64,000 bases of DNA from an uncultured Gammaproteobacteria bacterium. GTDB taxonomy: Bacteria > Pseudomonadota > Gammaproteobacteria > JAURND01. Every line of letters begins with the position of its first letter. Within the stretch, counting starts at the first letter, position 1. Position numbers and translations under genes: made by a program. Under the pieces are notes generated by a model that saw only the letters and a program-made list of their open reading frames with translations, had not been told where the DNA came from and did no database searches. Location: the NCBI GenBank assembly GCA_963813895.1, contig CAWFAS010000001.1, positions 473,290-537,289 of the forward strand, read 5' to 3'. This document shows positions 4,401-57,362 of the stretch, in pieces.

Positions 4401-5564
4401 TCAGCTGGCCTGTTTTGGGATATTTTTTATATACCCGCCAGGGACAGCCGTTATAAAATCTTGCAGCTCTAAGACCAAGAGCCCGGAAAAAACCACTTGG
4501 GTCATCAATCCACTCCTTGCTACCATTTGATCGACAGTGGTAGCTTCGTACCCCACACACTCTAACAGCTGCTGGCAATTGGCATCAAGGAAATTTTTCT
4601 TGTTCGTCTCTTCAGTCTCCTGCAGGGGATCCTGTTTGGCAGCGGCAATAGCGCCTAATTCTTCTAAGATATCCGTCACGTTCTCGACTAACTTGGCTCC
4701 CTGGCGTATCAGCAAATGACAACCCTGTGCTAAGGGATTGTAAATGGAACCTGGAATTGCAAATACCTCTCGCCCCTGTTCAGATGCCAGTCGTGCCGTG
4801 ATTAATGAACCGCTACGCAAGGTGGCTTCCACCACCAGCACCCCCAGGCTCATACCGCTGACCAGTCGGTTACGACGCGGGAAATGGGCTGCCTTTATTC
4901 CAGTGCCTATTGGAAATTCTGAAACCAGTGCACCCTGTGCAGTAATCTGTTCCGCCAGTTGCCGGTGTGTGGGTGGATAAACCAGGTCAAGTCCACAGCC
5001 TTGCACTGCAATGGTCGGCTGCCCATTCTTTAATGCGCCTTTGTGGCTTGCCGCATCTATGCCTAAAGCCAGGCCGCTGGTGATGGTCAAACCAGACTGA
5101 GATAAATGGGCAGCAAATTGCCGTGCTGACTCTAATCCTGTGGGTGTTGGGTTTCTGCTCCCGACCATGGCAAACTGCCGAGTGTGCAATAATTTGGGAT
5201 CACCAGCGACAAATAAAATCGGTGGCGCATCGGGTATTTGCCTCAGCAAATAGGGGTAGCGGTCATCCGTCCAGGTGACGATATGGTGCTGGGGAGATTC
5301 AGCCCACTTAAGATCAATCTGCACACCAGTCCAATCCGGTTTTGTTACACCCTGAATGATCCCTTCTGGCAAACCCAAAGAGGACAAGCGCGCCACTGAG
5401 GTATTAAATAATGGGGATAGTTGCGGAAAAAGCTGCAATAACTTGAAAAACCGTAGAGGGCCTATGCCAGGAGTTCGCCACAAAGCCAGCCAGTAATGCA
5501 GATCTTCGGCGAGTTGTTTTGCGGTCTGTGGTTGAAGGGTAGTCTGTGAAGTGTGGGTTAGCAA
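4401..5564 (-). CDS. dprA: DNA processing protein DprA (Smf)
   Basis: 387 aa. Rossmann-like DprA core: VGSRNPTPTGLESARQFAAHLSQSGLTITSGLALGIDAASHKGAL. A C-terminal winged-helix region is present. Confidence 0.9.
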   Translation of the reverse strand: MLTHTSQTTLQPQTAKQLAEDLHYWLALWRTPGIGPLRFFKLLQLFPQLSPLFNTSVARLSSLGLPEGIIQGVTKPDWTGVQIDLKWAESPQHHIVTWTDDRYPYLLRQIPDAPPILFVAGDPKLLHTRQFAMVGSRNPTPTGLESARQFAAHLSQSGLTITSGLALGIDAASHKGALKNGQPTIAVQGCGLDLVYPPTHRQLAEQITAQGALVSEFPIGTGIKAAHFPRRNRLVSGMSLGVLVVEATLRSGSLITARLASEQGREVFAIPGSIYNPLAQGCHLLIRQGAKLVENVTDILEELGAIAAAKQDPLQETEETNKKNFLDANCQQLLECVGYEATTVDQMVARSGLMTQVVFSGLLVLELQDFITAVPGGYIKNIPKQAS

Positions 5565-5689
5565 AGGCAGTTCTTTTGACAGAGGGTTTTAAGGATGACC
5601 AAATGAACCATTGTTGCAGGACGTCGCACTAGGGGCAATACCGTAACCTCTTCTTCAGCTTCATTCAGCACTCCAGATTGAGGGTCGGC

Positions 5690-5806
5690 TTTCTCCCTTC
5701 TCCCGCTTGCGGGAGAAGGGTCGGGGATGAGGGTGTATCGATCTGCATTTGTGCCCGAGGAAACACCCTCACCCCCCGCCCCTCTCCCGCAAGCGGGAGA
5801 GGGGCG
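5690..5806. repeat. Composite palindromic element, a diverged family A member. Two inverted arms (CCCTTCTCCCGCTTGCGGGAGAAGGG and CGCCCCTCTCCCGCAAGCGGGAGAGGGGCG) flank a central hairpin GAGGGTGT...ACACCCTC.
   Basis: Three hairpins read directly from the sequence. The arm cores CTTCTCCCGCTTGCGGGAGAAG are one- or two-base variants of the family A core CTTCCCCCGCAAGCGGGGGAAG. The element lies in the dprA / glyS intergenic region. Confidence 0.65.
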
Positions 5807-5909
5807 AAAGCTAGCCTATACTGAATAGTTACTAAAATATTTTGTGTCGATCCTCAGCCTGGGAGAGGGGATTACACTGCATAATCTGGCATTATTCAAC
5901 AATCTAAAA

Positions 5910-7982
5910 TTACTGCGCCAATACCGAAATATCCGCCACCTGCAAAAACAACCGCTGCAGCTGATAAAGCAAAGCCAGGCGGTTGTTACGCAATTTTTCA
6001 TCCGCCACCATGACCATGACTTCATCAAAAAAGCGGTCTATAGGGGCGCGTAGCGCAGCGAGGTTAGTTAATACTTCTGTATATTGGGCTTTATGGAATA
6101 GAGGTTCTACTTCCTTATTTTTTTGCTCCATCGCTGCTAACAACTGGTGTTCGGCTGCATCGGTCAGTAGGGTAGGGTTAACAGGATGATTTCGCCACTC
6201 TCCGTCAGGGTCTTTTAAAATATTGCTGACACGTTTGTGAGCTGCGGCCAACGCTTTAGCTTCCGGTAAAGATTGAAAATGTTGAACGGCCTGGACTCGA
6301 TAATGAAAATCCAGTGCCTGCGTGGGCATACGGGCCAATACTGAAGAGAATACTTCGGGCTCCACACCACGGTCCAAATACCAGGCGCGTAGCCTTTCCA
6401 TCATGAAATCGAAAGTTTGTTCGACTGCGGAGGGATTAACCAGTTTAGGGCCATAACCCGCAGCGGCTTGATTCAGCATTTCAAGCAAATCTAAGGGCAG
6501 TTTTTTTTCGATTAGTATACGCAGCACCCCCAACGCGGCGCGACGTAAACCAAAGGGGTCTTTTTCTCCGCTGGGCGGTTGGTTAACACCAAACAAGCCA
6601 ATAAGGGTGTCAATTTTGTCAGCAATAGATACCAGGCAGCCCATGTCAGATTCAGGTAGTGTATCTCCCGAAAAACGGGGTTGGTAATGCTCGCGCACTG
6701 CTAGGGCGACTGCTTCAGATTCGCCATCTTTCGTAGCATAGTAATAGCCCATTACACCTTGTAGTTCAGGAAATTCGCTCACCATAGCTGTGACGAGATC
6801 GGCTTTTGCCAGCAGACCGGCACGTTGTGTTTGTTTAGTATCAGTGCCCAGCTGTTGTCCCAGATATCCGGCCAGCATTGAAATGCGCTGGGATTTGTCA
6901 AACAATGTGCCTAGCTTGTGTTGGAAAAGGACTTTTTTTAATTCCTCCAATCGCGATTCCAAGCGATGTTTTAAATCAGTATGATAAAAAAACTGCGCAT
7001 CTGACAATCGCGCACGAATCACACGCTGATTACCGGCAATCACCCGTGCCGGATCTTTGCTGGCAATATTGCTGATTATCACGAAATAGGGCAGAAGTTT
7101 ATGCTGGTCGTCCACCACTGGAAAATATTTCTGATGACTTTGCATGGCGGTAATAATCGCTTCAGGAGGTACTTCAAGAAATTGCGCTTCGAATTCGCCC
7201 AACAAGGCGACTGGCCATTCTACCAGGCTGTTCACTTCATCCAGTAACTCCTCATCTATCACGGCAATGCCTTTATGCCTAACCGTCTGTTGGATTAATT
7301 CCCGTATGCGCAGCTTGCGTTCATTGTAATCAGTCAGCACCTGTCCAGATTCTTTTAATAATGCTGCGTATTCGTGCGGGTTGGAAATAGTAATGGCATC
7401 AGGATGGTGAAAGCGATGACCATAGGTGAGGTTAGAGGTGGTCTGTCCTAAAATGTCAGCAGCTATTATCTCTTTATCAAACAACAGCACCATCCAATGC
7501 ACTGGCCTAATAAAGGAGAAGCTGTGATCACTCCAGCGCATAGGTTTGGCTACAGGCAGTTGTTGTAGTGCCTGAGTTAGAATGGCGGGTAATAATTTGG
7601 CTGTTGGCTCGCCAGATTGTTGTTGGCGGAAAAATAACCACGCGCCCTTGTCAGTTTCTTGGGTCATAAGCTGATCTACGGTGGTATTACAGGCATTAGC
7701 AAAACCCAAACAGGCCAAGGTGGGGTGACCTTCGCTATCAAATGCAGCTTTGACTGCCGGACCTCTTTTTTCCACCACGTGGCTCGGTTGTTCAGTGACT
7801 AGATCTTTGAGATAGACGGCCAGGCGGCGCGGTGTGGCAAATAGCTTGATTGCATTATAGCCTAGGCCGGCTTTTTCCAGGCCAGAGCATAAATTGGCGC
7901 CCAAAGCTTCAGAAAGCCTTTTTAATTGTTTGGGAGGCAGTTCTTCAGTACCGATTTCAACTAATAAATCACGCGAGTTCAT
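5910..7982 (-). CDS. glyS: Glycine--tRNA ligase beta subunit
   Basis: N-terminus [20 protein letters not shown] is the canonical GlyS start. The track ORF runs to 8117, but the upstream 45 codons overlap glyQ and have no homology. The chosen start overlaps the glyQ stop by 14 nt, as is usual for glyQS. Confidence 0.9.
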
Positions 7983-9062: not shown

Positions 9063-10271
9063 TCAGTCATCCTGAACCACCCGCACAGCGGTAAACCCAC
9101 CACCCCGAGTTCTAAAATTAGTTACCTGACCCTGATACAAGCGCGCGACAATATTTAATACCCGCCCTTGATAAGTATAATTGCGGATATCCATTTTAAA
9201 CGTGGTCGCTCCTTCTTCTTCCAATTGAACTATTTGCTCGCTAGGGGGCACTAGCTCTTGGGCAATATAGCTGCCCGCCAGGACCTCAGCAAACACTTTT
9301 TTGGTGATACTTTGCCCGCGATAAGCGCCTTTGCCCGCATAGCCAGCCACTGGTTTGAAGAACAGTTTCTTGCGTTCTGTCCATAAGAAATCCGCTAATA
9401 AGGGGTCGACCAGCAATGTATGTGGAACTCCCTGTTGTAAGCTTGCGATTATATCAGGACTGACCCCCCAACTACTTAACAATTCAGGATTAGACAAAAC
9501 CGTAAGGTTGCGTTTATCAGCATACAAAGCATGGGCATGGGGATCTGGAGTGACTACGACAGCATTCTCCCTATAAGCTTTTAATAATGTGGCATGGGCC
9601 GGTTCAGTCAGAGAAAAATCCGTTAAGCGATTATAAACCAGGTCGATATTTAAACCGTTTTGTTGCAGCTGTCCATTTTTGTAGGACAATGTAGCCGGGT
9701 CAGCGATGACGGTATCTATCCCTCTGGATTTAAACAGGGTCTGGAATAATACAAATTCTGGATAATAATATTGTTGTAGTGGTTGATGGTCGATGATGGC
9801 AATGCGCGTTAAAGGTGCGTTGGGATGCGCGCGACGCCACTCTTCTTGAAACATGGAGACATATTGTTCTTGCCACAGTGTGGGTCTGTCGAGAGGGAGT
9901 TGATTTTCTGCCCATAAGGCCATCTCTAATAAGGCAATGAAACCGGCACCGCCAGCATTAGTATTTATTTCAATCAGTTTGGGTCCGTGAGGTGTTAGAT
10001 GAAAGTCATAACCAAAAAAAACTCCTGGTACCTTGTGGTGTTTATTAACCTTTGAGGGGGCCCAGGATAGCACGTGCTGTTGGTATGCTGGCAATGCTAT
10101 AACCGTTTCTATAGCACTTATTAGCTGCTGCATGGCGGTAGCTTGCTCAGGTGATAGCTCAACCATTGCGTTTGAAAAGAGTTGCGGTCGCTCGCGCAGC
10201 CATTCTTCTGGCAAATGATAATCTGCCCCCACAAGCTGGAGTCGTTGGTATAGTTGGCTTAAATTAATCAT
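9063..10271 (-). CDS. ATP-grasp fold protein (circularly permuted ATP-grasp / glutathionylspermidine-synthase-like); function unknown
   Basis: 402 aa. The EINTNAGGAGF motif and overall pattern are consistent with the YgiC/YjfC-type ATP-grasp family. The assignment is from memory of that family, not a search. Confidence 0.55.
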   Translation of the reverse strand: MINLSQLYQRLQLVGADYHLPEEWLRERPQLFSNAMVELSPEQATAMQQLISAIETVIALPAYQQHVLSWAPSKVNKHHKVPGVFFGYDFHLTPHGPKLIEINTNAGGAGFIALLEMALWAENQLPLDRPTLWQEQYVSMFQEEWRRAHPNAPLTRIAIIDHQPLQQYYYPEFVLFQTLFKSRGIDTVIADPATLSYKNGQLQQNGLNIDLVYNRLTDFSLTEPAHATLLKAYRENAVVVTPDPHAHALYADKRNLTVLSNPELLSSWGVSPDIIASLQQGVPHTLLVDPLLADFLWTERKKLFFKPVAGYAGKGAYRGQSITKKVFAEVLAGSYIAQELVPPSEQIVQLEEEGATTFKMDIRNYTYQGRVLNIVARLYQGQVTNFRTRGGGFTAVRVVQDD

Positions 10272-26191: not shown

Positions 26192-26263
26192 TACCGAGCC
26201 GCGACCGTTAGGGAGCGTTTAAATTAGATTGTTTAAACGCTCCCTAACGGTCGCGGCTCGGTA
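26192..26263. repeat. Palindromic element, family B core (TACCGAGCCGCGACCGTTAGGGAGCGTTT aaattagattgttt AAACGCTCCCTAACGGTCGCGGCTCGGTA)
   Basis: 29-bp near-perfect inverted arms. The same arms occur at 41303, 44064 and, as a half copy, at 51393. The ybhP stop codon lies inside the element. Confidence 0.75.
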
Positions 26264-29775: not shown

Positions 29776-29831
29776 ATATTATAAAGAGGGTTCTGTTACT
29801 TAACTGATCAAATAACACTGATGGGCTCAGA

Positions 29832-29989
29832 GCCAGTAGAGGCTGCCCCCATCCTAACCTTCCCCCGCAAGCGGGGGAAGGGACTTGCTCGAGCCAGTAT
29901 GGGATTGGGCGCATAACTTAACTTATTGCCCAACCAGTTCCTTCCCCCGCTTGCGGGGGAAGGTTAGGATGGGGGCAGCCTCTACTGGC
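29832..29989. repeat. Long composite palindromic element, family A (about 158 bp). Inverted arms GCCAGTAGAGGCTGCCCCCATCCTAACCTTCCCCCGCAAGCGGGGGAAGG each contain an internal hairpin, and they are separated by a spacer of about 60 nt.
   Basis: Read directly from the sequence. It sits between the convergent pssA and parE genes. A second copy lies at 42347-42485. Confidence 0.8.
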
Positions 29990-30052
29990 ACTGGATTCGG
30001 CCATGTATCAGGTTCAATAAATATATGAGTCCCATCACCTAAGCAGCTGAAC

Positions 30053-35125: not shown

Positions 35126-35180
35126 CTACGTCGTCCCGCGAACAATCCCGGATCAAGTCCGGGAGCAGGACGACGGACTG
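35126..35180. repeat. Hairpin CGTCGTCCCGCGAACAATCCCGGATCAAGTCCGGGAGCAGGACGACG. Its stem sequence is related to the inner arms of the family C2 element at 57165-57260.
   Basis: Nested stems read directly. It follows the fabV stop and precedes the AI-2E transporter gene. It may be a terminator or a repeat fragment. Confidence 0.5.
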
Positions 35181-36327: not shown

Positions 36328-37065
36328 TTAAATCCTCATGATCCCTGTAGAAAAATTACCCTCGGGTGTTAACTCAACCCAACGGTATCCAGGAGTGGCC
36401 GAAGTATCAATGGCAAACTTTGCTAATCGAGGAGCAAACTGCACGCAAGTGGACGGTGCGCCTAAAAAATGCACCCCATTATGTAATAATGAAAATTCCT
36501 GATGGATATGGCCGAATAGCACTAGACGAATTTGTGGAAATAAGCTTAATAACTCCAAAAATCGATCTGCATTAATCACCTTTATGGCATCCATATAACA
36601 GTCAATCTGCACTGGATGGTGATGCATAACTATCACTGCTTCCCGATCTGGATATTGTGTCAAGCAACGTTGTAAATGCGCGAAATCCAGAGTGCCAAGA
36701 AAACCATCGTCCAGCCCTGGAGCAGTGGAATCGAGAAATATAATCTGCCATCCATCCAACAAAGCTGCTCCACCCGCTATCAAGTGGTTTGCGGTTAATC
36801 CAACATAAGCATTTTCCAGGTCATCATGATTTCCAGGCACCCAATAAATAGGACAGGTAAAATCAGAAACGCTTGCGGCAAGCCGACAATAAGAAGCTAA
36901 AGAACCCTCTTGCGATAGATCACCACTCATAACTATCAAATCTGGCTGCTGCAATCGTACCTTCTGCAGTACTGCCTCCAGCGACTGTTGTGTGTTGACC
37001 GCACCTAAGCAGTCTGTAGAATTTGCCAATAAATGCAGATCAGATATTTGGATAAGTCGAGTCAT
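36328..37065 (-). CDS. cpdA: 3',5'-cyclic-nucleotide phosphodiesterase CpdA (calcineurin-like metallophosphoesterase)
   Basis: 245 aa. Motifs ISDLHL, GDLSQEG, GNHDD and GHIH are present. It lies next to nudF, as in the E. coli nudF-cpdA cluster. Confidence 0.85.
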   Translation of the reverse strand: MTRLIQISDLHLLANSTDCLGAVNTQQSLEAVLQKVRLQQPDLIVMSGDLSQEGSLASYCRLAASVSDFTCPIYWVPGNHDDLENAYVGLTANHLIAGGAALLDGWQIIFLDSTAPGLDDGFLGTLDFAHLQRCLTQYPDREAVIVMHHHPVQIDCYMDAIKVINADRFLELLSLFPQIRLVLFGHIHQEFSLLHNGVHFLGAPSTCVQFAPRLAKFAIDTSATPGYRWVELTPEGNFSTGIMRI

Positions 37066-37780
37066 CGCTCAGCCTTGTCTCTTTCTGACTTAACCAGTTT
37101 GCTCTGAGTTCCTCTTTATGTAGTTGGAACCATAATAAGCCCATTAAACAAAGGGCATTTTTAATTTCTCCACGGTGCATTCGTTTCAGTGCCTCTGCTG
37201 CATCCACTACATGAACGCGAATATCTTCGTGCTCATCCGCTAGACCATGCACCCCGCCGGCATTGCTGGCGTCAACACGAGCGCAAAATAAAGACACATA
37301 TTCATTAGTTGCACCTGGACTGGCCCAATAATCAAAAATGGGTATCAGGTCCAAGGCTACTAAGCCAGCCTCTTCTTGCACTTCGCGACGCGCTAGTTCT
37401 TCAGGAGTTTCTCCCTCTTCCAATAATCCGGCCACTATCTCAATTAACCACGGGCTGGCCTTATCTTCGAAAGCCCCCAGGCGGAATTGCTCCAGCAAGA
37501 CAATTTTGTCTAATACTGGATCATAAGGCAAAACCGCAGCGGCATGATGACGTATGACTAATTCGCGGGAAAATGTCTGACTCCATCCTCCGGCAAATAG
37601 CTTATGTTGTAAAATGTATTTTTTTAGCGTGATAAAACCTTTATATAACAGGGATTCTTCAATAATTTTTACATCATTTCGGTTCATAAATACCTCTGAA
37701 GGTTTACCTCGGTCTGTTCCTGTCGTAATATACTCAAAACGTTTAAAATCTAGGTGTTGGAGTAGTTCAGGTGATTTCAA
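37040..37780 (-). CDS. nudF: ADP-ribose pyrophosphatase (NUDIX hydrolase NudF)
   Basis: Collinear with E. coli NudF (NDVKIIEE.LYKGF, Nudix box GLLEEGETPEELARREVQEEAGL, GLADEHEDIRVHVV). The true start may be at the internal Met 31 codons downstream (MNRNDVK...). The 3' end overlaps the cpdA start by 26 nt. Confidence 0.85.
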   Translation of the reverse strand: MKSPELLQHLDFKRFEYITTGTDRGKPSEVFMNRNDVKIIEESLLYKGFITLKKYILQHKLFAGGWSQTFSRELVIRHHAAAVLPYDPVLDKIVLLEQFRLGAFEDKASPWLIEIVAGLLEEGETPEELARREVQEEAGLVALDLIPIFDYWASPGATNEYVSLFCARVDASNAGGVHGLADEHEDIRVHVVDAAEALKRMHRGEIKNALCLMGLLWFQLHKEELRANWLSQKETRLSDDSTYPNI

Positions 37781-37828
37781 ATGCTTTTGAGTATTCTAGC
37801 AGCGTCCCTATCATGCTGCACTTTAAGG

Positions 37829-37857
37829 TACTGTAAAACAATAACCTATCTTTTTAC
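37829..37857. repeat. Solo copy of the family C2 terminal repeat (CTGTAAAACAATAACCTATCTTTTTACAG)
   Basis: 26 of 26 bases match the left terminal inverted repeat of the 290-bp element at 57064-57352, with a final CAG closing a short palindrome. It lies in the nudF / pcm intergenic region. Confidence 0.65.
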
Positions 37858-37901
37858 AGCACCTAACCCAGCCAACTTCTTCTACACTTAATGATAACTC
37901 A

Positions 37902-38555
37902 ATGAATATTGAACAAGCCCGCCAAAATATGATTTTTCAACAACTTCGAGCTTGGGGGGTTCTGAATGATCAGGTTTTGGATTTATTTGTGCGGTTACCG
38001 AGGGAAAATTTCGTGCCCTCAGCTTATCGCGATTTGGCTTTTGCCGATATAGCGATACCACTAAATAAAGACATTACCATGCTGGCGCCTGCGGAAGAAG
38101 CACGCATGGTGCAAGCTCTTGACCTCAAAACAACAGATAAGGCGCTGGTGCTAGGTACTGGAACTGGCTATATTACGGCATTATTAGCTAGTTTGGCACA
38201 TTGGGTATATAGCATTGATGATGCGATACGATTTACTAGAGGCGCGCAACAGAAATTAGCGGCGGTGCCGATTACCAATGTCACTTTGGAAACTGCTCCT
38301 GCAATAGAAGGTTGGGAAGTAGCAGCGCCGTATGATGTAATAGTATTAACAGGCTCGTTGCCGTGGGTGCCGAGGTCTTTAATGCGAATGCTGGCGAGCA
38401 ACGGTCGACTATTTGCTATTGTTGGTTCAGCGCCAGTGATGGAAGCTATGCTCATTACCCGTTCGACTAGCAATCATTGGCAAACTGAAAAACTCTTTGA
38501 AACTTTACGGCCGAGATTGCCTGGGGTAAAGGAACCGAACGTATTTATTTTTTGA
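37902..38555 (+). CDS. Protein-L-isoaspartate O-methyltransferase family protein (Pcm paralogue)
   Basis: 217 aa with a SAM-binding glycine-rich motif (VLGTGTGYITALLA). It is PCMT-like throughout and sits directly upstream of tolC. Confidence 0.75.
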   Translation: MNIEQARQNMIFQQLRAWGVLNDQVLDLFVRLPRENFVPSAYRDLAFADIAIPLNKDITMLAPAEEARMVQALDLKTTDKALVLGTGTGYITALLASLAHWVYSIDDAIRFTRGAQQKLAAVPITNVTLETAPAIEGWEVAAPYDVIVLTGSLPWVPRSLMRMLASNGRLFAIVGSAPVMEAMLITRSTSNHWQTEKLFETLRPRLPGVKEPNVFIF

Positions 38556-49380: not shown

Positions 49381-49492
49381 CTGTCATCCTGAACAAGCTG
49401 TCATCCTGAACGCAGTGAAGGATCTCCATAGGGTGGCTTTTCAGCAATATGTGCCACCATACGGAGATCCTTCACTGTGTTCAGGATGACAG
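49381..49492. repeat. Family B-type element with the same 14-bp terminal repeats but a different palindromic interior. The left terminal repeat is tandemly duplicated.
   Basis: Sequence is CTGTCATCCTGAAC aag CTGTCATCCTGAAC, then the palindrome GCAGTGAAGGATCTCCATAGGGTGGC ... GCCACCATACGGAGATCCTTCACTG, then GTTCAGGATGACAG. It begins 5 nt after the bamE stop. Confidence 0.75.
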
Positions 49493-49503
49493 CATACCCA
49501 ATC

Positions 49504-51333: not shown

Positions 51334-51392
51334 AGACTATCTCCTGTAAATTATGCTGTAGGATACCTTATAATATAGTTTTTTAGCAATTT

Positions 51393-51422
51393 CACCGAGC
51401 CGCAACCGTTACGGAGCGTTTA
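51393..51422. repeat. Family B half-element (CACCGAGCCGCAACCGTTACGGAGCGTTTA), a single arm
   Basis: Matches the left arm of the 26192 / 41303 / 44064 elements with 3 mismatches. No partner arm is present, so it is probably a decayed copy. Confidence 0.55.
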
Positions 51423-51470
51423 TTGTTAAACCTCGGCCATAACCTTAATTGAATTAGCGCGGATCTAGCA

Positions 51471-52545: not shown

Positions 52546-53880
52546 TTATAGAATATACCTGCTTAAATCCTCGTTCTTTAACAAAGTAGTTAGTTGTTTA
52601 TCAACGTAATCTGCCGTAACTGTTAAAGATTCCCCACTGCGGTCAGTTGCATCGAAAGAAATGCTCTCCAGCAGACGTTCCAGGATAGTATATAAACGTC
52701 TGGCACCAATATTTTCTGAGCGCTCATTCACTTGGAAGGCAATCTCTGCAATGCGGCGAATGCCGTCAGGAGCAAAGTCTAATTTAAATCCTTCAGTACC
52801 CATTAATTCAGTATATTGAGTGACCAAAGAGGCTTGGGGTTCGGTAAGGATGCGGGCAAAGTCATCTGTGGTTAGGGCCTTCAACTCAACGCGGATAGGC
52901 AACCTGCCTTGTAATTCTGGCACTAAATCTGAGGGCTTAGATAAGTGAAAAGCGCCGGAAGCGATAAACAAAATATGGTCCGATTTCACCATGCCATATT
53001 TGGTGGATACCGTTGATCCTTCTACCAATGGTAGCAGATCGCGTTGTACGCCTTCGCGTGAAACATCAGCGCCACCGTATTCACTGCCGCGGCGCACAAT
53101 TTTGTCAATTTCATCAATGAATACGATACCATTTTGTTCTACACTTTCAACGGCCAACTTGCGGATTTCATCTTCATTTACTAGTTTGGCGGCCTCTTCA
53201 TCACTTAATTGCTGCAATGCATCTTTAATCTTCATCTTGCGTCGTTTAGTGCGCTCTCCGGCCAGAGATTGGAACATGGTTTGTAGCTGGTTGGTCATTT
53301 CTTCCATACCAGGGGGGGCCATAATTTCTACGCCAACCTGCGAACTCACTTCGATTTCAATTTCCGTGTCATCTAATTGGCCTTCGCGCAATCTTTTGCG
53401 AAATAGTTGTCGAGTTGCGGAGTCTTTTTCTTTTTCAAGATCAATAGTGGGTTTGGTAGTAAGAGTGGAACGCGCTGGCGTGAGTAAAACGTCAAGAATA
53501 CGTTCTTCAGCAATTTCTTCGGCGCGGGTGCGTACTTTTTCCATTTCGCTTTCTCGTACCAGCTTTACAGCTACATCTGCCAAATCACGGATAATAGATT
53601 CAACGTCACGTCCCACATAGCCAACTTCGGTAAATTTCGTGGCCTCTACTTTGATGAAAGGTGCTTTGGCTAACTCTGCCAGGCGACGGGCAATCTCGGT
53701 TTTACCTACACCGGTCGGGCCGATCATTAGAATATTTTTTGGAGTGATTTCTTTAGCCAGTTCAGCGGGTAGCTGTATACGACGCCAGCGGTTACGCAAT
53801 GCAATAGCCACCGCGCGTTTTGCCTCATCCTGCCCTATGATATATTTGTTTAATTCTTCGACAATTTCTCGAGGGGTCAT
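52546..53880 (-). CDS. hslU: ATP-dependent protease ATPase subunit HslU
   Basis: [34 protein letters not shown], then [15 protein letters not shown], is nearly identical to the E. coli HslU N-terminus. The start could instead be the upstream ATG at 53925, which adds 15 aa and is what the track shows. Neither has a strong Shine-Dalgarno. Confidence 0.9.
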
Positions 53881-53990
53881 AGTAGATTGGATATCAATAG
53901 AAATTTGTCTATGTCTATATGCCATTTTATATTCTCTGTAGTGGGTTTAGGTTGGGCGGTTGCGTTTAGAATGACAAATAATTTTTTGAA

Positions 53991-54542
53991 CTAAACAGTC
54001 TCTGTAGGAAGCTCTTCTATCACGAAGTTTTTATTAGTAAAAATGCAAATTTCCGCTGCGACGGTCAATGATTTTTCGACAATGTCGCGCGCTCCTAGCT
54101 CAGTATGGCGTAGCAAAGCCCGGGCTGCAGACTCAGCAAAAGCGCCTCCTGAACCAATGGCCATGATGCCTTCTTCAGGTTCAATAACATCGCCAAGGCC
54201 TGTAATAACTAAAGAGTTTTTGGCATCAGCAACTGCAAGTAATGCTTCTAGCCTGCGCAACATTTTATCAGTGCGCCAATCCTTTGCTAACTCAACTGCA
54301 GCACGAGTCAGGTTTCCAGCGTGCTTTTCAAGTTTAGCCTCAAATAATTCCAATAAGGTGAAAGCATCTGCAGTGCCGCCTGCGAAACCAGCGATGACTT
54401 TGTCATTGTATAAGCGCCGTACTTTGCGGGCATTGCTTTTCATAACCATTGATTTGCCCATCGTCACTTGGCCATCACCGCCAATAACTACTCGATTGCC
54501 ACGTCTTACGGAAAGGATGGTGGTGCCCCTGAATTGTTCCAA
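53991..54542 (-). CDS. hslV: ATP-dependent protease peptidase subunit HslV
   Basis: 183 aa. The N-terminal Thr nucleophile is in context ([21 protein letters not shown]). Confidence 0.93.
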
Positions 54543-54690: not shown

Positions 54691-55443
54691 CTAGGGTTGT
54701 TTAATCATAATGCTCGCAACATTGTTCTGTCGTAAAGCTTGTTGTTTCTCTAGCGCCAGCTGTTTAGAGGAAAAAGGCCCTACATAGACCCGGTTCCAAG
54801 GCTGACCATCTAAAGTATTTTTTTGAATAGTCACACTGAATCCAAGCATTGAAAGCTGGGCTTTAAGTCTGTCCGCATCGCTATAGTTTTTTACCGATGC
54901 TACTTGCAACACATAACTGCCAGCATGGGCCGAATTTTCTTCTTGCGACCTTATGGCTTTGGCAGAAGTTGGCGCAGGGGATGAAGAGGGTTCAGAAGGA
55001 GCAGTTGCTTCTCTGGGCACAATGGAAGTGGAAGGTCTGGTGGTCACTGCGGGAGTATTTGCTGTAGCAGCCACTGGTGGGGAAGACGGCTTTCTTGTTG
55101 GGGGCGTGGATGAATCAATGGGGATATTGCTAGAATCTACCTGCATTTTTGGCAGAACAGTGTAGAAGTCAAATTGTGGAGCGTGCGATTGACCGGCAAC
55201 TGTATCCGAGCTGGCGTTTTGTCTTTTAGAGGCTAAATGAGGGTGTCGCGGTTGAGGTGATTCTTGCTTGAGCGGGGCTATTTCATGGGCATACTCCCAA
55301 AAAATAGCTAAAGCTATAGTTACTCCAAGTAAAATTCCAATAATTGCCCATTTTAGGCCATTTGGAGCATTTTTGGCTGATGGTTTTTCATAACGGCGTG
55401 TTGTCGTGCGGCTTGGTCTGGTTTTGCGGTAATCTCTGGCCAT
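54691..55443 (-). CDS. ftsN: Cell division protein FtsN-like (SPOR domain)
   Basis: N-terminal MARDYRK...R-rich cytoplasmic tail, a single TM helix (WAIIGILLGVTIALAIF), a Pro/Ser/Thr-rich linker and a C-terminal SPOR domain (YVLQVASVKNYSDADRLKAQLSMLGF). It sits upstream of hslVU, as in E. coli. Confidence 0.8.
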   Translation of the reverse strand: MARDYRKTRPSRTTTRRYEKPSAKNAPNGLKWAIIGILLGVTIALAIFWEYAHEIAPLKQESPQPRHPHLASKRQNASSDTVAGQSHAPQFDFYTVLPKMQVDSSNIPIDSSTPPTRKPSSPPVAATANTPAVTTRPSTSIVPREATAPSEPSSSPAPTSAKAIRSQEENSAHAGSYVLQVASVKNYSDADRLKAQLSMLGFSVTIQKNTLDGQPWNRVYVGPFSSKQLALEKQQALRQNNVASIMIKQP

Positions 55444-55457
55444 ATAGGGTTTCACAT

Positions 55458-56867
55458 TTAATGTTGCAGCGGTGGTAGTACCGCAGCTTCCTGGGTGACG
55501 GGAACGCCATTCGCCATGAGCTGCTTATTTTTATAACTTATCTCTGACTGATAACTGTCATCTTCTGGGGTTAACCACTTATTTTGCACCCATTTTTTTA
55601 TTTGCTGATTAGCATGTTGTTCTACTGCGGTGGGGGTATTGGCTAAATTATCAGTAGCGGTGATCCCCAGTAAACGGCCCACAGCACTTTGGTTAAAGTA
55701 ACTTATGAGTCCTGAAAGCATCGGAGCGGGTATTTTTAAATGTGCTGTTGCCTCTAAATAATCTAAAAAAGTTTTCAAGTTGGTTGCCATAGCACTTTGC
55801 GGTGTTAACTTGAGCTGTATAGTTGCCGCAAAGATACCTGATGGCATGACTAAATTCAATTTGTCGATGTTAAAATCTAGGCCCTTGCTGACCAACATCA
55901 TAAATAAATCATTATATAATAAAAGTTGCGTGGTCGAGAGGGCTTCAGCACTTGTAATTTGCGTAAGTTCTTTACGTATGGCTAATAAAGTCGGCACGTC
56001 CAATTGATTGATAATCAATTTTATTTGGTGCGGTCCATAGCTACCGTTATCAAAAACAATTTTATTCAAAATGGCATTTAATCTATAACTCATTTTAGCG
56101 CTTTGCTCTGCACTTTGTGATTGCATCGTAAGTCCATCTAGCTGTATACGGGAGCTATGGTCGATGGTTTCCCAGGATACATTACCGATTTTCGTTGTTC
56201 TCCAGCCAAGAAAAAGGCCGCTTGGAGTTTTGCGTAAGCTGAATTGTTCGCTTAAATTAGTTATTTGTTGCAAAAATTCTGGGGTAGTGATGTTTCCCGT
56301 AGGGGATTCAATGCTGGCGAAGATTTGGTTCATGTTAGGTGATAAAAGTAAGGTGGCGGTGAGAGAGGTCAGCTGTGCAGTTATTCCTTTACCTTGATTA
56401 TTAAGATGTAAATTGGGTGCATTAATAGCAGTTAATAGGGACCCATCTAATTCGGCAAAAGTGATGGTATCAATCAGGCCCAGGGCGGTTTTGATAGTGC
56501 TTTTAATGACAGCTCTTCCCAATAAAAACCGATCTTTTGCTTCTTGTGGAGAAACCCATAGAAAAGGGCCGTGTTCTATGTGTTGATTAAGGGTGAGTGG
56601 AATGGCTCCGGGATTTTCATTGCCGAGCCATTTTTTGATTTCCATCAGGGTGGGATAGCTCAGGTCTACCTGAACTACTGCATCGGAGTTGAACCAGCCG
56701 CGTTTATAGCTCACCAGTTTCAGCTTTATATTTTCTTCCCTAGACCAAGTCTCTAAAACTTGTGAATATTTTTTTTCTACAGCCATTCCCATGGCAAGAG
56801 GAAGCAGGGCAGTGATAATAACAATGATAATCACAGCGACGGATGTCCATATCAACCATTTCTTCAT
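55458..56867 (-). CDS. YdgA-like (DUF945) protein, N-terminally membrane anchored
   Basis: 469 aa. N-terminal TM helix, then the YKRGWFNSD motif equivalent to E. coli YdgA YHRGVFSS. Overall length and periodicity are similar. Confidence 0.7.
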   Translation of the reverse strand: MKKWLIWTSVAVIIIVIITALLPLAMGMAVEKKYSQVLETWSREENIKLKLVSYKRGWFNSDAVVQVDLSYPTLMEIKKWLGNENPGAIPLTLNQHIEHGPFLWVSPQEAKDRFLLGRAVIKSTIKTALGLIDTITFAELDGSLLTAINAPNLHLNNQGKGITAQLTSLTATLLLSPNMNQIFASIESPTGNITTPEFLQQITNLSEQFSLRKTPSGLFLGWRTTKIGNVSWETIDHSSRIQLDGLTMQSQSAEQSAKMSYRLNAILNKIVFDNGSYGPHQIKLIINQLDVPTLLAIRKELTQITSAEALSTTQLLLYNDLFMMLVSKGLDFNIDKLNLVMPSGIFAATIQLKLTPQSAMATNLKTFLDYLEATAHLKIPAPMLSGLISYFNQSAVGRLLGITATDNLANTPTAVEQHANQQIKKWVQNKWLTPEDDSYQSEISYKNKQLMANGVPVTQEAAVLPPLQH

Positions 56868-56874
56868 TAGCTAA

Positions 56875-57066
56875 CCTCAGGGCTTGTGCAAGAATAATTC
56901 TTCACATTAGGCGCTCATTATGGCATCATCTTCAAGCGCTCCTCAATCGAAAAACCTCGAAAGACGTCAAGTATTCCTGCGATTTTTCGTGATGAAGGTG
57001 CGTTTAAATCTAATACCCTGACTTCCCGCCTAATGTGAAGAATTATTCTTGCACAAGCCCTTAGGC
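56875..57066. repeat. Family C1 element: 35-bp perfect terminal inverted repeats (AGGGCTTGTGCAAGAATAATTCTTCACATTAGGCG ... reverse complement) flanking about 113 bp of non-palindromic interior
   Basis: Read directly from the sequence. The interior contains a 33-codon ATG-initiated reading frame of doubtful significance. Confidence 0.75.
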
Positions 57067-57352
57067 TCTGTAAAACAATAACCTATCTTTTTAACATCCC
57101 ATCTAAGACCCATCTTCGCAGGCGGGAGGGGATAGAAAAACACTTACATAGAACAACCGACGTAGTCGTCCCGGCATGGAAGCCGGGATCCAGATCGCAG
57201 GAAGTGAAAGTTTCGCTTTCCTGCGCCCTGGATCCCGGCTTCCTGCCGGGACGACGTTCCGTCGACTATGCGCGCATTTTTCTACCCCCTCCCGTCTGCA
57301 AATCTGAGTCTCATCTGGGCGCTAAAAAGATAGGTTATTGTTTTACAGAGCC
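57064..57352. repeat. Family C2 element: a 290-bp multiply nested imperfect palindrome with 30-bp terminal inverted repeats GGCTCTGTAAAACAATAACCTATCTTTTTA
   Basis: Three tiers of inverted symmetry (outer repeats; GGCGGGAGGGGATAGAAAAA / TTTTTCTACCCCCTCCCGTC; inner CGACGTAGTCGTCCCGG...CCGGGACGACGTTCCGTCG) around a central GCAGGAAGTGAAAGTTTCGCTTTCCTGC hairpin. It abuts C1 and ends 11 nt before the argS start codon. Confidence 0.8.
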
Positions 57353-57362
57353 TTAATGCGAA

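Follow-up and report, generated by a model that had tools for sequence, protein, structure and literature searches.

Two abutting palindromic elements, designated C1 and C2, form a 480-bp block beside the arginyl-tRNA synthetase gene argS and raise the question of what such sequences are, how they came to lie there and which of the neighboring genes they could affect. The initial annotation of the window (the whole 64-kb stretch of DNA analyzed here) had placed the block upstream of argS, with C2 ending 11 nt from the argS ATG, and had judged this placement before an essential synthetase gene unusual. The block proved to be real, its repeats being exact and far beyond chance, and its position relative to argS proved to be the reverse of that described.

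Position and architecture of the block

According to the ORF list, argS (57363..59117, 584 aa; Pfam Arg_tRNA_synt_N, tRNA-synt_1d and DALR_1) lies on the minus strand with its TGA stop codon at 57365-57363, and the block therefore follows the stop codon, C2 ending 10 nt beyond it. A plus-strand ATG at 57367-57369 is antisense within the last argS codons (minus strand: ...ATC ATG TGA). At its other end the block reaches the ribosome-binding site of a DUF945 gene (55458..56867, minus strand, 469 aa) directly downstream, whose Shine-Dalgarno sequence GAGG (56875..56878, minus strand) stands at the outer foot of the C1 hairpin. Downstream of DUF945 follow a SPOR-domain gene (54691-55455), hslV (53991-54542) and hslU (52546-53925). 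The argS-to-DUF945 spacer is 495 bp long in the window and is filled by C1 and C2. With argS on the opposite strand, the seemingly unusual location is a spacer between genes of the same direction, 3' to argS and 5' to DUF945, and such spacers are the commonest location of REP/MITE-type repeats (PMC3733652; PMC10969869). An effect of the block on argS could be exerted via the argS 3' end only. In annotation the block should be treated as repeats inserted at an operon-like junction and not as a leader or regulator ahead of an essential synthetase gene.

Other genes of the window bear on its source. It encodes an ankyrin-repeat protein of 1335 aa (11228-15235) and a Sel1-repeat protein of 383 aa (15569-16720), the gene of the latter having internal DNA repeats spaced 108 nt at 15638-16493. 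Proteins with ankyrin or Sel1 repeats typically belong to bacteria that are host-associated or intracellular, and their presence suggests a host-associated lifestyle for the source gammaproteobacterium. Three further ORFs were without a Pfam family, namely 44160-45992 (610 aa), 9063-10271 (402 aa) and 62356-62946 (196 aa), the first of them giving only a sub-threshold hint of an H-NS C-terminal domain (E = 0.005).

The element next to DUF945, C1, is a MITE-like sequence of 181 bp (56880..57060, no strand assigned), delimited by its inverted repeats and its fold. Inverted-repeat detection bore out both the 35-bp perfect terminal repeats and the 113-bp interior previously reported for it: the repeats at 56879..56913 (plus strand) and 57027..57061 (minus strand) are complementary at 35 of 35 positions, extend to 39 nt with one mismatch (56875/57065) and enclose an interior of 113 nt. 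The idea of an ARG-box operator in the C1 repeat was rejected because GAATAATTC appears to have the wrong spacing for one.

C2, likewise MITE-like, is an imperfect palindrome over its whole length (57064..57352, 289 bp, no strand assigned). Its left (57063..57093, plus strand) and right (57323..57353, minus strand) terminal inverted repeats of 31 nt are perfect complements of each other (31/31), a second tier consists of 63-nt arms at 57089-57151 and 57266-57328 (71% complementary), and the inner palindrome occupies 57165-57255. The three-tier organization first proposed for C2 was thus confirmed by inverted-repeat detection, with termini perfect over 31 nt and a length of 289 bp. The arm matches of C1 and C2, together with that of a solo C2 terminus described below, were reached in 0 of 100 dinucleotide shuffles. 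The terminal sequences of the two elements (GGGCTTGTGCAAGAATAATTCTTCAC and GGCTCTGTAAAACAATAACCTATC) are alike (GGGCTTGTGCAAGAA vs GGCTCTGTAAAACAA), while their interiors are unrelated.

The core of C2 (57164..57256) is a head-to-head dimer of REP-like stem-loops with the tags outermost. Its left unit is composed of the tag AGTC (57164-57167), the stem GTCCCGGC (57168-57175), a loop (57176-57181), the returning stem GCCGGGAT (57182-57189) and the tail CCA (57190-57192), and its right unit, read on the minus strand, of the tag CGTC (57256-57253), a stem (57252-57245), the loop AGGAA (57244-57240), the returning stem (57239-57232) and again the tail CCA (57231-57229). The GTCCCGGC/GCCGGGAT stem comprises 8 bp, of which the first pair is G-T; the loops are AGGAA and ATGGAA, the CCA tail is present on both units, and the 36-nt spacer between them is itself palindromic. 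C2 is a composite, with long terminal arms on either side of two CGTC-tag REP-like hairpins placed head to head.

Related sequences and origin

Within the 64-kb window C1 is present as a single copy, and C2 is single apart from one solo terminus. This solo copy, which the initial annotation had located near 37829, was recovered at 37826..37856 (plus strand, 31 nt) as a match of 29 of 31 bases, with 26 contiguous identical bases and 2 mismatches, about 19 kb from the block. It is preceded by TAA (37824-37826) and is situated in the intergenic region from which a NUDIX gene (37040-37780, minus strand) and pcm (37902-38555, plus strand) diverge; local alignment beside it revealed no further part of C2 and no second arm nearby. 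The solo copy itself makes up a small palindrome, CTGTAAAA-N12-TTTTACAG (37831-37859), in the NUDIX/pcm divergent promoter region, and it could serve as a binding site for a protein instead of being a dead transposon end. The hairpin reported around 35126-35180 does exist, as a single REP-like stem-loop at 35129..35175 (no strand assigned), and its supposed kinship to the inner arms of C2 was confirmed only weakly. In a motif scan it had in common with the C2 core the 8-mer (tag) CGTCGTCC and a TCCCGG..CCGGGA stem-loop, both found nowhere else in the window, and a profile of the C2 inner arms did not detect it at E<=10; because the profile search does not link the two, we rate the relation plausible but weak. 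Counting this hairpin, the window holds three units related to the C2 core, the other two being those of C2 itself.

At least a dozen other intergenic palindromes, belonging to several families and some of them nested, are present in the window, and the genome is therefore prone to such elements. One family is built on CCTTCCCCCGCAAGCGGGGGAAGG with outer arms GCCAGTAGAGGCTGCCCCC and comprises intergenic palindromes of 80-170 bp at 1315-1396, 5688-5811, 29828-29993 and 42345-42486, that is, four copies per 64 kb and more than either C1 or C2. A second has the core ACCGAGCCGCGACCGTTAGGGAGCGTTTA (26192-26263, 41299-41405, 44063-44142, 51383-51426, 49397-49493 and 9066-9075), which occurs either on its own or enclosed by TGTC-ATCCTGAAC outer arms; at 49400-49490 these outer arms enclose a different core. 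This modular nesting of ACCGAGCCGCGACCGTTAGGGAGCGTTTA and TGTC-ATCCTGAAC palindromes resembles that of CGTC/TGTC-tagged REPs. The C2 core stem starts with GT, and other palindromes of the window begin with TGTC-ATCCTGAAC.

Searches beyond the window were carried out with the termini, the arms and the translations of the block. Exact scans of species-representative genomes (a collection evidently without the source genome) with a C2 terminus 20-mer and a C1 terminus 24-mer gave no match; nor did exact scans of viral contigs for both termini or blastn against plasmids and phages. In JGI metagenomes, scanned for the C2 terminus only, one bare 20-mer was found in a coding region and is a chance match, and a search of the window and of 10 related loci with nhmmer profiles built from the arms of C1 and C2 recovered the known copies only. 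The ORFs of the block are of 21-50 aa only: exact look-up of five of them was without a match, and the concatenated six-frame translation matched none of 5.8 billion protein clusters at E<=0.001. By Pfam, no transposase, recombinase or RAYT was encoded among the ORFs of the window that have at least 110 aa and do not overlap a larger ORF. Nothing in the block reached the Rfam gathering score, a permissive threshold yielding generic miRNA-type hairpins far below it, and RNase P (834-1218) was the only passing Rfam match in the window. An IHF consensus site was not found in the block. Among specific RNA classes considered, a T-box or argS leader was rejected as the block is on the wrong side of argS, a retron or other RT-linked ncRNA was rejected as there is no reverse transcriptase, and tRNA or tmRNA was ruled out by search.

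The initial annotation had suggested comparing this junction across strains; the comparison made here covered six related loci, five at 67-80% ArgRS identity and one (L010) at 65%, and is accordingly one of relatives and not of strains. The best relatives (Gammaproteobacteria MAGs) have ArgRS orthologues of the same length and 80% identity, and the ArgRS and DUF945 proteins of the window are each alone in their own 90% cluster. The gene order argS-DUF945-SPOR-hslV of the window was also kept in five of the six loci, L010 being without DUF945. C1 or C2 sequence was found in none of the argS-to-DUF945 spacers of these relatives. The spacer is 9 bp long and without such content in L004, 71 bp with a short hairpin in L005, 90 bp with a short hairpin in L009, 141 bp with a 112-bp cluster of GGGAGCGCGGGC..GCCCGC hairpins in L008, and about 219 bp with an unrelated 132-bp palindrome in L002, so that the empty site expected of a MITE insertion is seen in the 9-bp spacer, next to 71-219 bp in the four others. 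Four relatives thereby have unrelated palindromes in this spacer. As judged from these loci, the block was added in this lineage only, to a spacer that measures just 9 bp in one close relative, and the argS-DUF945 junction is a recurrent landing site at which unrelated palindromes were gained in different lineages.

Several features of the related loci deserve mention in their own right. In L002, the 80%-identical relative, the palindrome (7795-7926, 132 bp) has 47-nt arms that are 94% complementary, and the deposited DUF945 gene call of 501 aa (7857-7977 region) starts inside it. Since the conserved start ATGAAAAAATGG is at 7977, this call is probably over-extended by about 40 codons, a palindrome similar to the block having led to it; we measured the L002 spacer from the ATGAAAAAATGG start at 7977 because of this over-extension. 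In the more distant relatives L008 (4256-4367, a cluster) and L009 (4250-4275, a single one), hairpins of the GGGAGCGCGGGC..GCCCGC REP type lie directly past the argS stop. Upstream of argS in L004, three tandem units of ~511 bp each (4619-5924) each include pairs of hairpins with inverted TGTCATTCCCGCGAAGGCGGGAAC (similar to Neisseria dRS3) and an ORF call of 43 aa, and adjoin a probable pseudogene of an M20 peptidase, which is annotated as two separate calls.

The immediate flanks of the elements suggest how they may have arrived. C2 is bordered by TTA at 57061-57063 and at 57353-57355, i.e. TAA on the mRNA strand, and C1 by TCA at 56877-56879 and TTA at 57061-57063, i.e. TGA and TAA on the mRNA strand. 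Read along the mRNA, the junction runs TGA (argS stop)-ttcgcat-TAA-C2-TAA-C1-TGA-GG-ttagcta-ATG (DUF945), so that C2 is flanked by TAA/TAA and C1, imperfectly, by TAA/TGA, three bases being weak evidence. When both elements are taken out, a 19-nt spacer with an AAGG ribosome-binding site remains. In the simplest history, a first insertion at a TAA target would have duplicated these 3 bp, and a second one would have entered one of the two TAA copies, followed by an A-to-G change in the last copy. As the termini of C1 and C2 are similar, one transposase encoded elsewhere may have moved both. Both elements, at 181 and 289 bp, are shorter than 500 bp, are without a transposase gene and have terminal inverted repeats, as MITEs do. 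Among the possibilities that the initial annotation had offered, a stacked MITE insertion is the best supported, by the inverted termini, the TAA flanks, the likeness of the termini, the absence in relatives, the occurrence of a solo terminus 19 kb away and the lack of any coding potential. We consider it probable, with good confidence, that the block consists of two non-coding palindromic repeats of the MITE/REP kind, side by side in the argS-DUF945 spacer.

Two other accounts of its origin were weighed. If the palindromes had been made locally by template-switching or duplication-inversion at replication and had never been mobile, a second full-length copy would not be expected, and none was detected in anything searched; such an origin is nevertheless very unlikely in view of the C2-terminus copy that has the same TAA flank 19 kb off, the related termini around unrelated interiors, and the REP-like unit of the C2 core that recurs at 35129-35175. 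Long palindromes are also a known class of assembly artefact, and the source is a contig of an uncultured organism, so a spurious palindrome in a metagenome-assembled genome had to be considered. This explanation is hardly credible, since the block is internal to a 1.06-Mb contig and the same junctions are present in a separate short-read assembly of the same organism (Logan, run ERR11718638). In the latter, one contig (L001) runs from argS and ends 26 nt into the right terminus of C2 and another (L007) comes from the DUF945 side and extends 30 nt into the left terminus of C1; these breaks are uninformative on copy number because a local inverted repeat alone explains them.

Possible effects on gene expression

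No intrinsic terminator was predicted, and transcription from argS therefore probably enters the block. The predicted fold of C2 has -218.8 kcal/mol on the minus strand vs -188.2 on the plus strand (z = -25.6), and that of C1 -104 kcal/mol on the minus strand vs -88.3 on the plus strand (z about -13.6), the single-strand z-scores of both elements ranging from -13.5 to -25.7 against shuffled controls. Among the arm mismatches of C2, 10 are G-U-compatible on the mRNA strand vs 2-3 on the other (one-sided binomial p about 0.05). The better folding on the mRNA strand may just mirror the founder copy, and it is at most a hint of selection because the other palindromes of the window, five of nine of which fold better on the transcribed strand, follow no general rule.

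In the predicted fold of the read-through RNA, base pairs form between the AGG of the Shine-Dalgarno sequence of DUF945 and the CCU where C2 and C1 meet. RNA continuing from argS into the block would give rise to two hairpins whose perfect basal stems measure 31 and 35 bp. Such hairpins are well known as targets of RNase III and as obstacles to 3' exonucleases. Transcripts of Correia elements are cut by RNase III at the paired terminal repeats, and inversion of these elements has been reported (PMC10969869); REP and ERIC elements affect mRNA stability (PMC10969869; PMC3733652). By analogy with Correia, REP and ERIC elements, the hairpins would be expected to protect the argS 3' end, RNase III-type cleavage would cut argS off from the downstream message, and the DUF945 Shine-Dalgarno sequence would be buried in the read-through RNA. 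The interior of C1 contains a promoter-like site facing DUF945 (56917..56946, minus strand), a consensus match only, with TTGAGG, an 18-nt spacing and TG-n-CATAAT, which gives 9 of 12 consensus matches plus the TG extension; ten promoter-like sites occur in the 1-kb region vs 1.7 expected. This sigma-70-like extended -10 site could restore expression of DUF945-SPOR-hslVU, and a transcript started there would lack the 5' arm and therefore leave the ribosome-binding site free. If the effects proposed here hold, they would add one more case of MITE/REP sequences uncoupling neighboring genes and donating promoters.

Taken to its end, this line of reasoning would make C1 and C2 a domesticated expression module and not mere junk, in which hairpins selected on the mRNA strand (10 G-U pairs vs 2 in C2) end and protect the argS mRNA and block read-through translation of DUF945, with C1 as a new and possibly invertible promoter for DUF945-SPOR-hslVU. 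We regard so elaborate a role as unlikely. Were it true, two stacked repeats would have rewired an operon junction in a gammaproteobacterium that is probably associated with a host.

Two further functional readings were weighed. The block might encode a structured RNA of its own, an sRNA derived from the 3' UTR or a cis-regulatory RNA, shaped in place by selection on RNA structure and not by transposition: C1 and C2 fold markedly better on the transcribed strand, the G-U-compatible mismatches of C2 are skewed to 10 vs 2-3, and MITE-derived sRNAs are known in Coxiella (PMC5896051). Against this, Rfam gives generic hairpins only, C1 and C2 are conserved in no relative and hence offer no covariation signal to draw on, the other palindromes of the window are without a consistent strand preference, and the perfect 31-35-bp termini with their TAA flanks look like transposon ends, all of which makes a dedicated RNA distinctly improbable. 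More improbable again is that C1 is an inverton whose 113-bp segment is flipped by a site-specific recombinase, switching DUF945-SPOR-hslVU on and off. Perfect 35-bp inverted repeats around a sigma-70-like extended -10 site that faces the adjacent gene, the position of C1 right against the DUF945 ribosome-binding site and the reported inversion of Correia elements (PMC10969869) are what such a switch would show; however, the 64-kb window yielded no gene for an invertase or recombinase, the promoter matches the consensus at just 9 of 12 positions, the adjoining C2 has termini of the same style without any such logic, and the second orientation was not seen in the short-read contigs, which end within the repeats.

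Comparison with known repeat systems

The closest parallels to C2 are found among short palindromic repeats that carry REP hairpins. QMITE2 of Coxiella burnetii has terminal repeats and a central REP and is located mostly in 3' UTRs (PMC5896051). Like C2 it is short and non-coding, with ~190 bp and 23-29-bp terminal inverted repeats round a central REP hairpin; most copies lie in 3' UTRs or intergenic spacers, the transcript adopts a very stable hairpin, and truncated copies resemble plain REPs. Unlike C2, with which it has no sequence similarity, QMITE2 contains a GTAG-type REP, makes 7-9-bp direct repeats, is present in 78 copies and is a target of IS1111, whereas C2 contains a CGTC-like REP dimer, has an apparent 3-bp TAA flank and is associated with no insertion sequence in the window.

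For the core of C2, the CGTC-tagged REPs described by Di Nocera et al. are the nearest counterpart; they form head-to-head dimers, also as dimers within longer palindromes, and lie downstream of genes (PMC3733652). Those compared here were dRS3 of Neisseria and the CGTC-1 dimers of Halothiobacillus neapolitanus, which are embedded in 41-bp palindromes (PMC3733652). The C2 core resembles them in its CGTC/AGTC tag, 8-bp stem, 5-6-nt loop and CCA tail, and in its head-to-head arrangement with tags outside, ~36 nt apart, within a longer palindrome. Its units conform to the 8-9-bp stem, 4-5-nt loop and short CCA tail by which CGTC REPs are recognized, and their tags are CGTC (right) and AGTC (left) vs the REP tag set CGTC/TGTC/CCTC. 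The difference is in the stem, which begins with GT instead of the complementary A-T that is near-invariant in CGTC REPs, and in number, with three units only in 64 kb. CGTC REP families have been described as mostly alphaproteobacterial, while the host here is gammaproteobacterial.

Further likenesses concern other repeat families of bacteria. Correia elements (NEMIS) of Neisseria, at 100-150 bp with 26-bp terminal inverted repeats, likewise lie beside genes and carry outward promoters (PMC10969869), but they differ from C1 and C2 in their TA duplication, IHF site and hundreds of copies, and the sequences are unrelated. The ERIC/IRU repeats of enterobacteria are, as C2 is, imperfect palindromes over their whole length, found in intergenic regions that are transcribed, where they affect mRNA stability according to their orientation; they differ in having ~127 bp, no sequence similarity to C2 and no embedded REP dimer. 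Clustering, mutual insertion and internal promoters have been described for MITEs (PMC10969869), and the bunched and mutually inserted small repeat families BOX, RUP and SPRITE of Streptococcus pneumoniae are comparable to the block in this respect (PMC10969869), although families and host phylum are unrelated. If the proposed effects hold, the present case would come from an uncultured lineage with many nested palindrome families and would be useful to those who catalogue bacterial repeats, while leaving current understanding unchanged. C1 and C2 represent sequence families that are new but of a well-known kind, in an uncultured gammaproteobacterium rich in repeats, and a block of this type is most likely an ordinary feature of such a genome.
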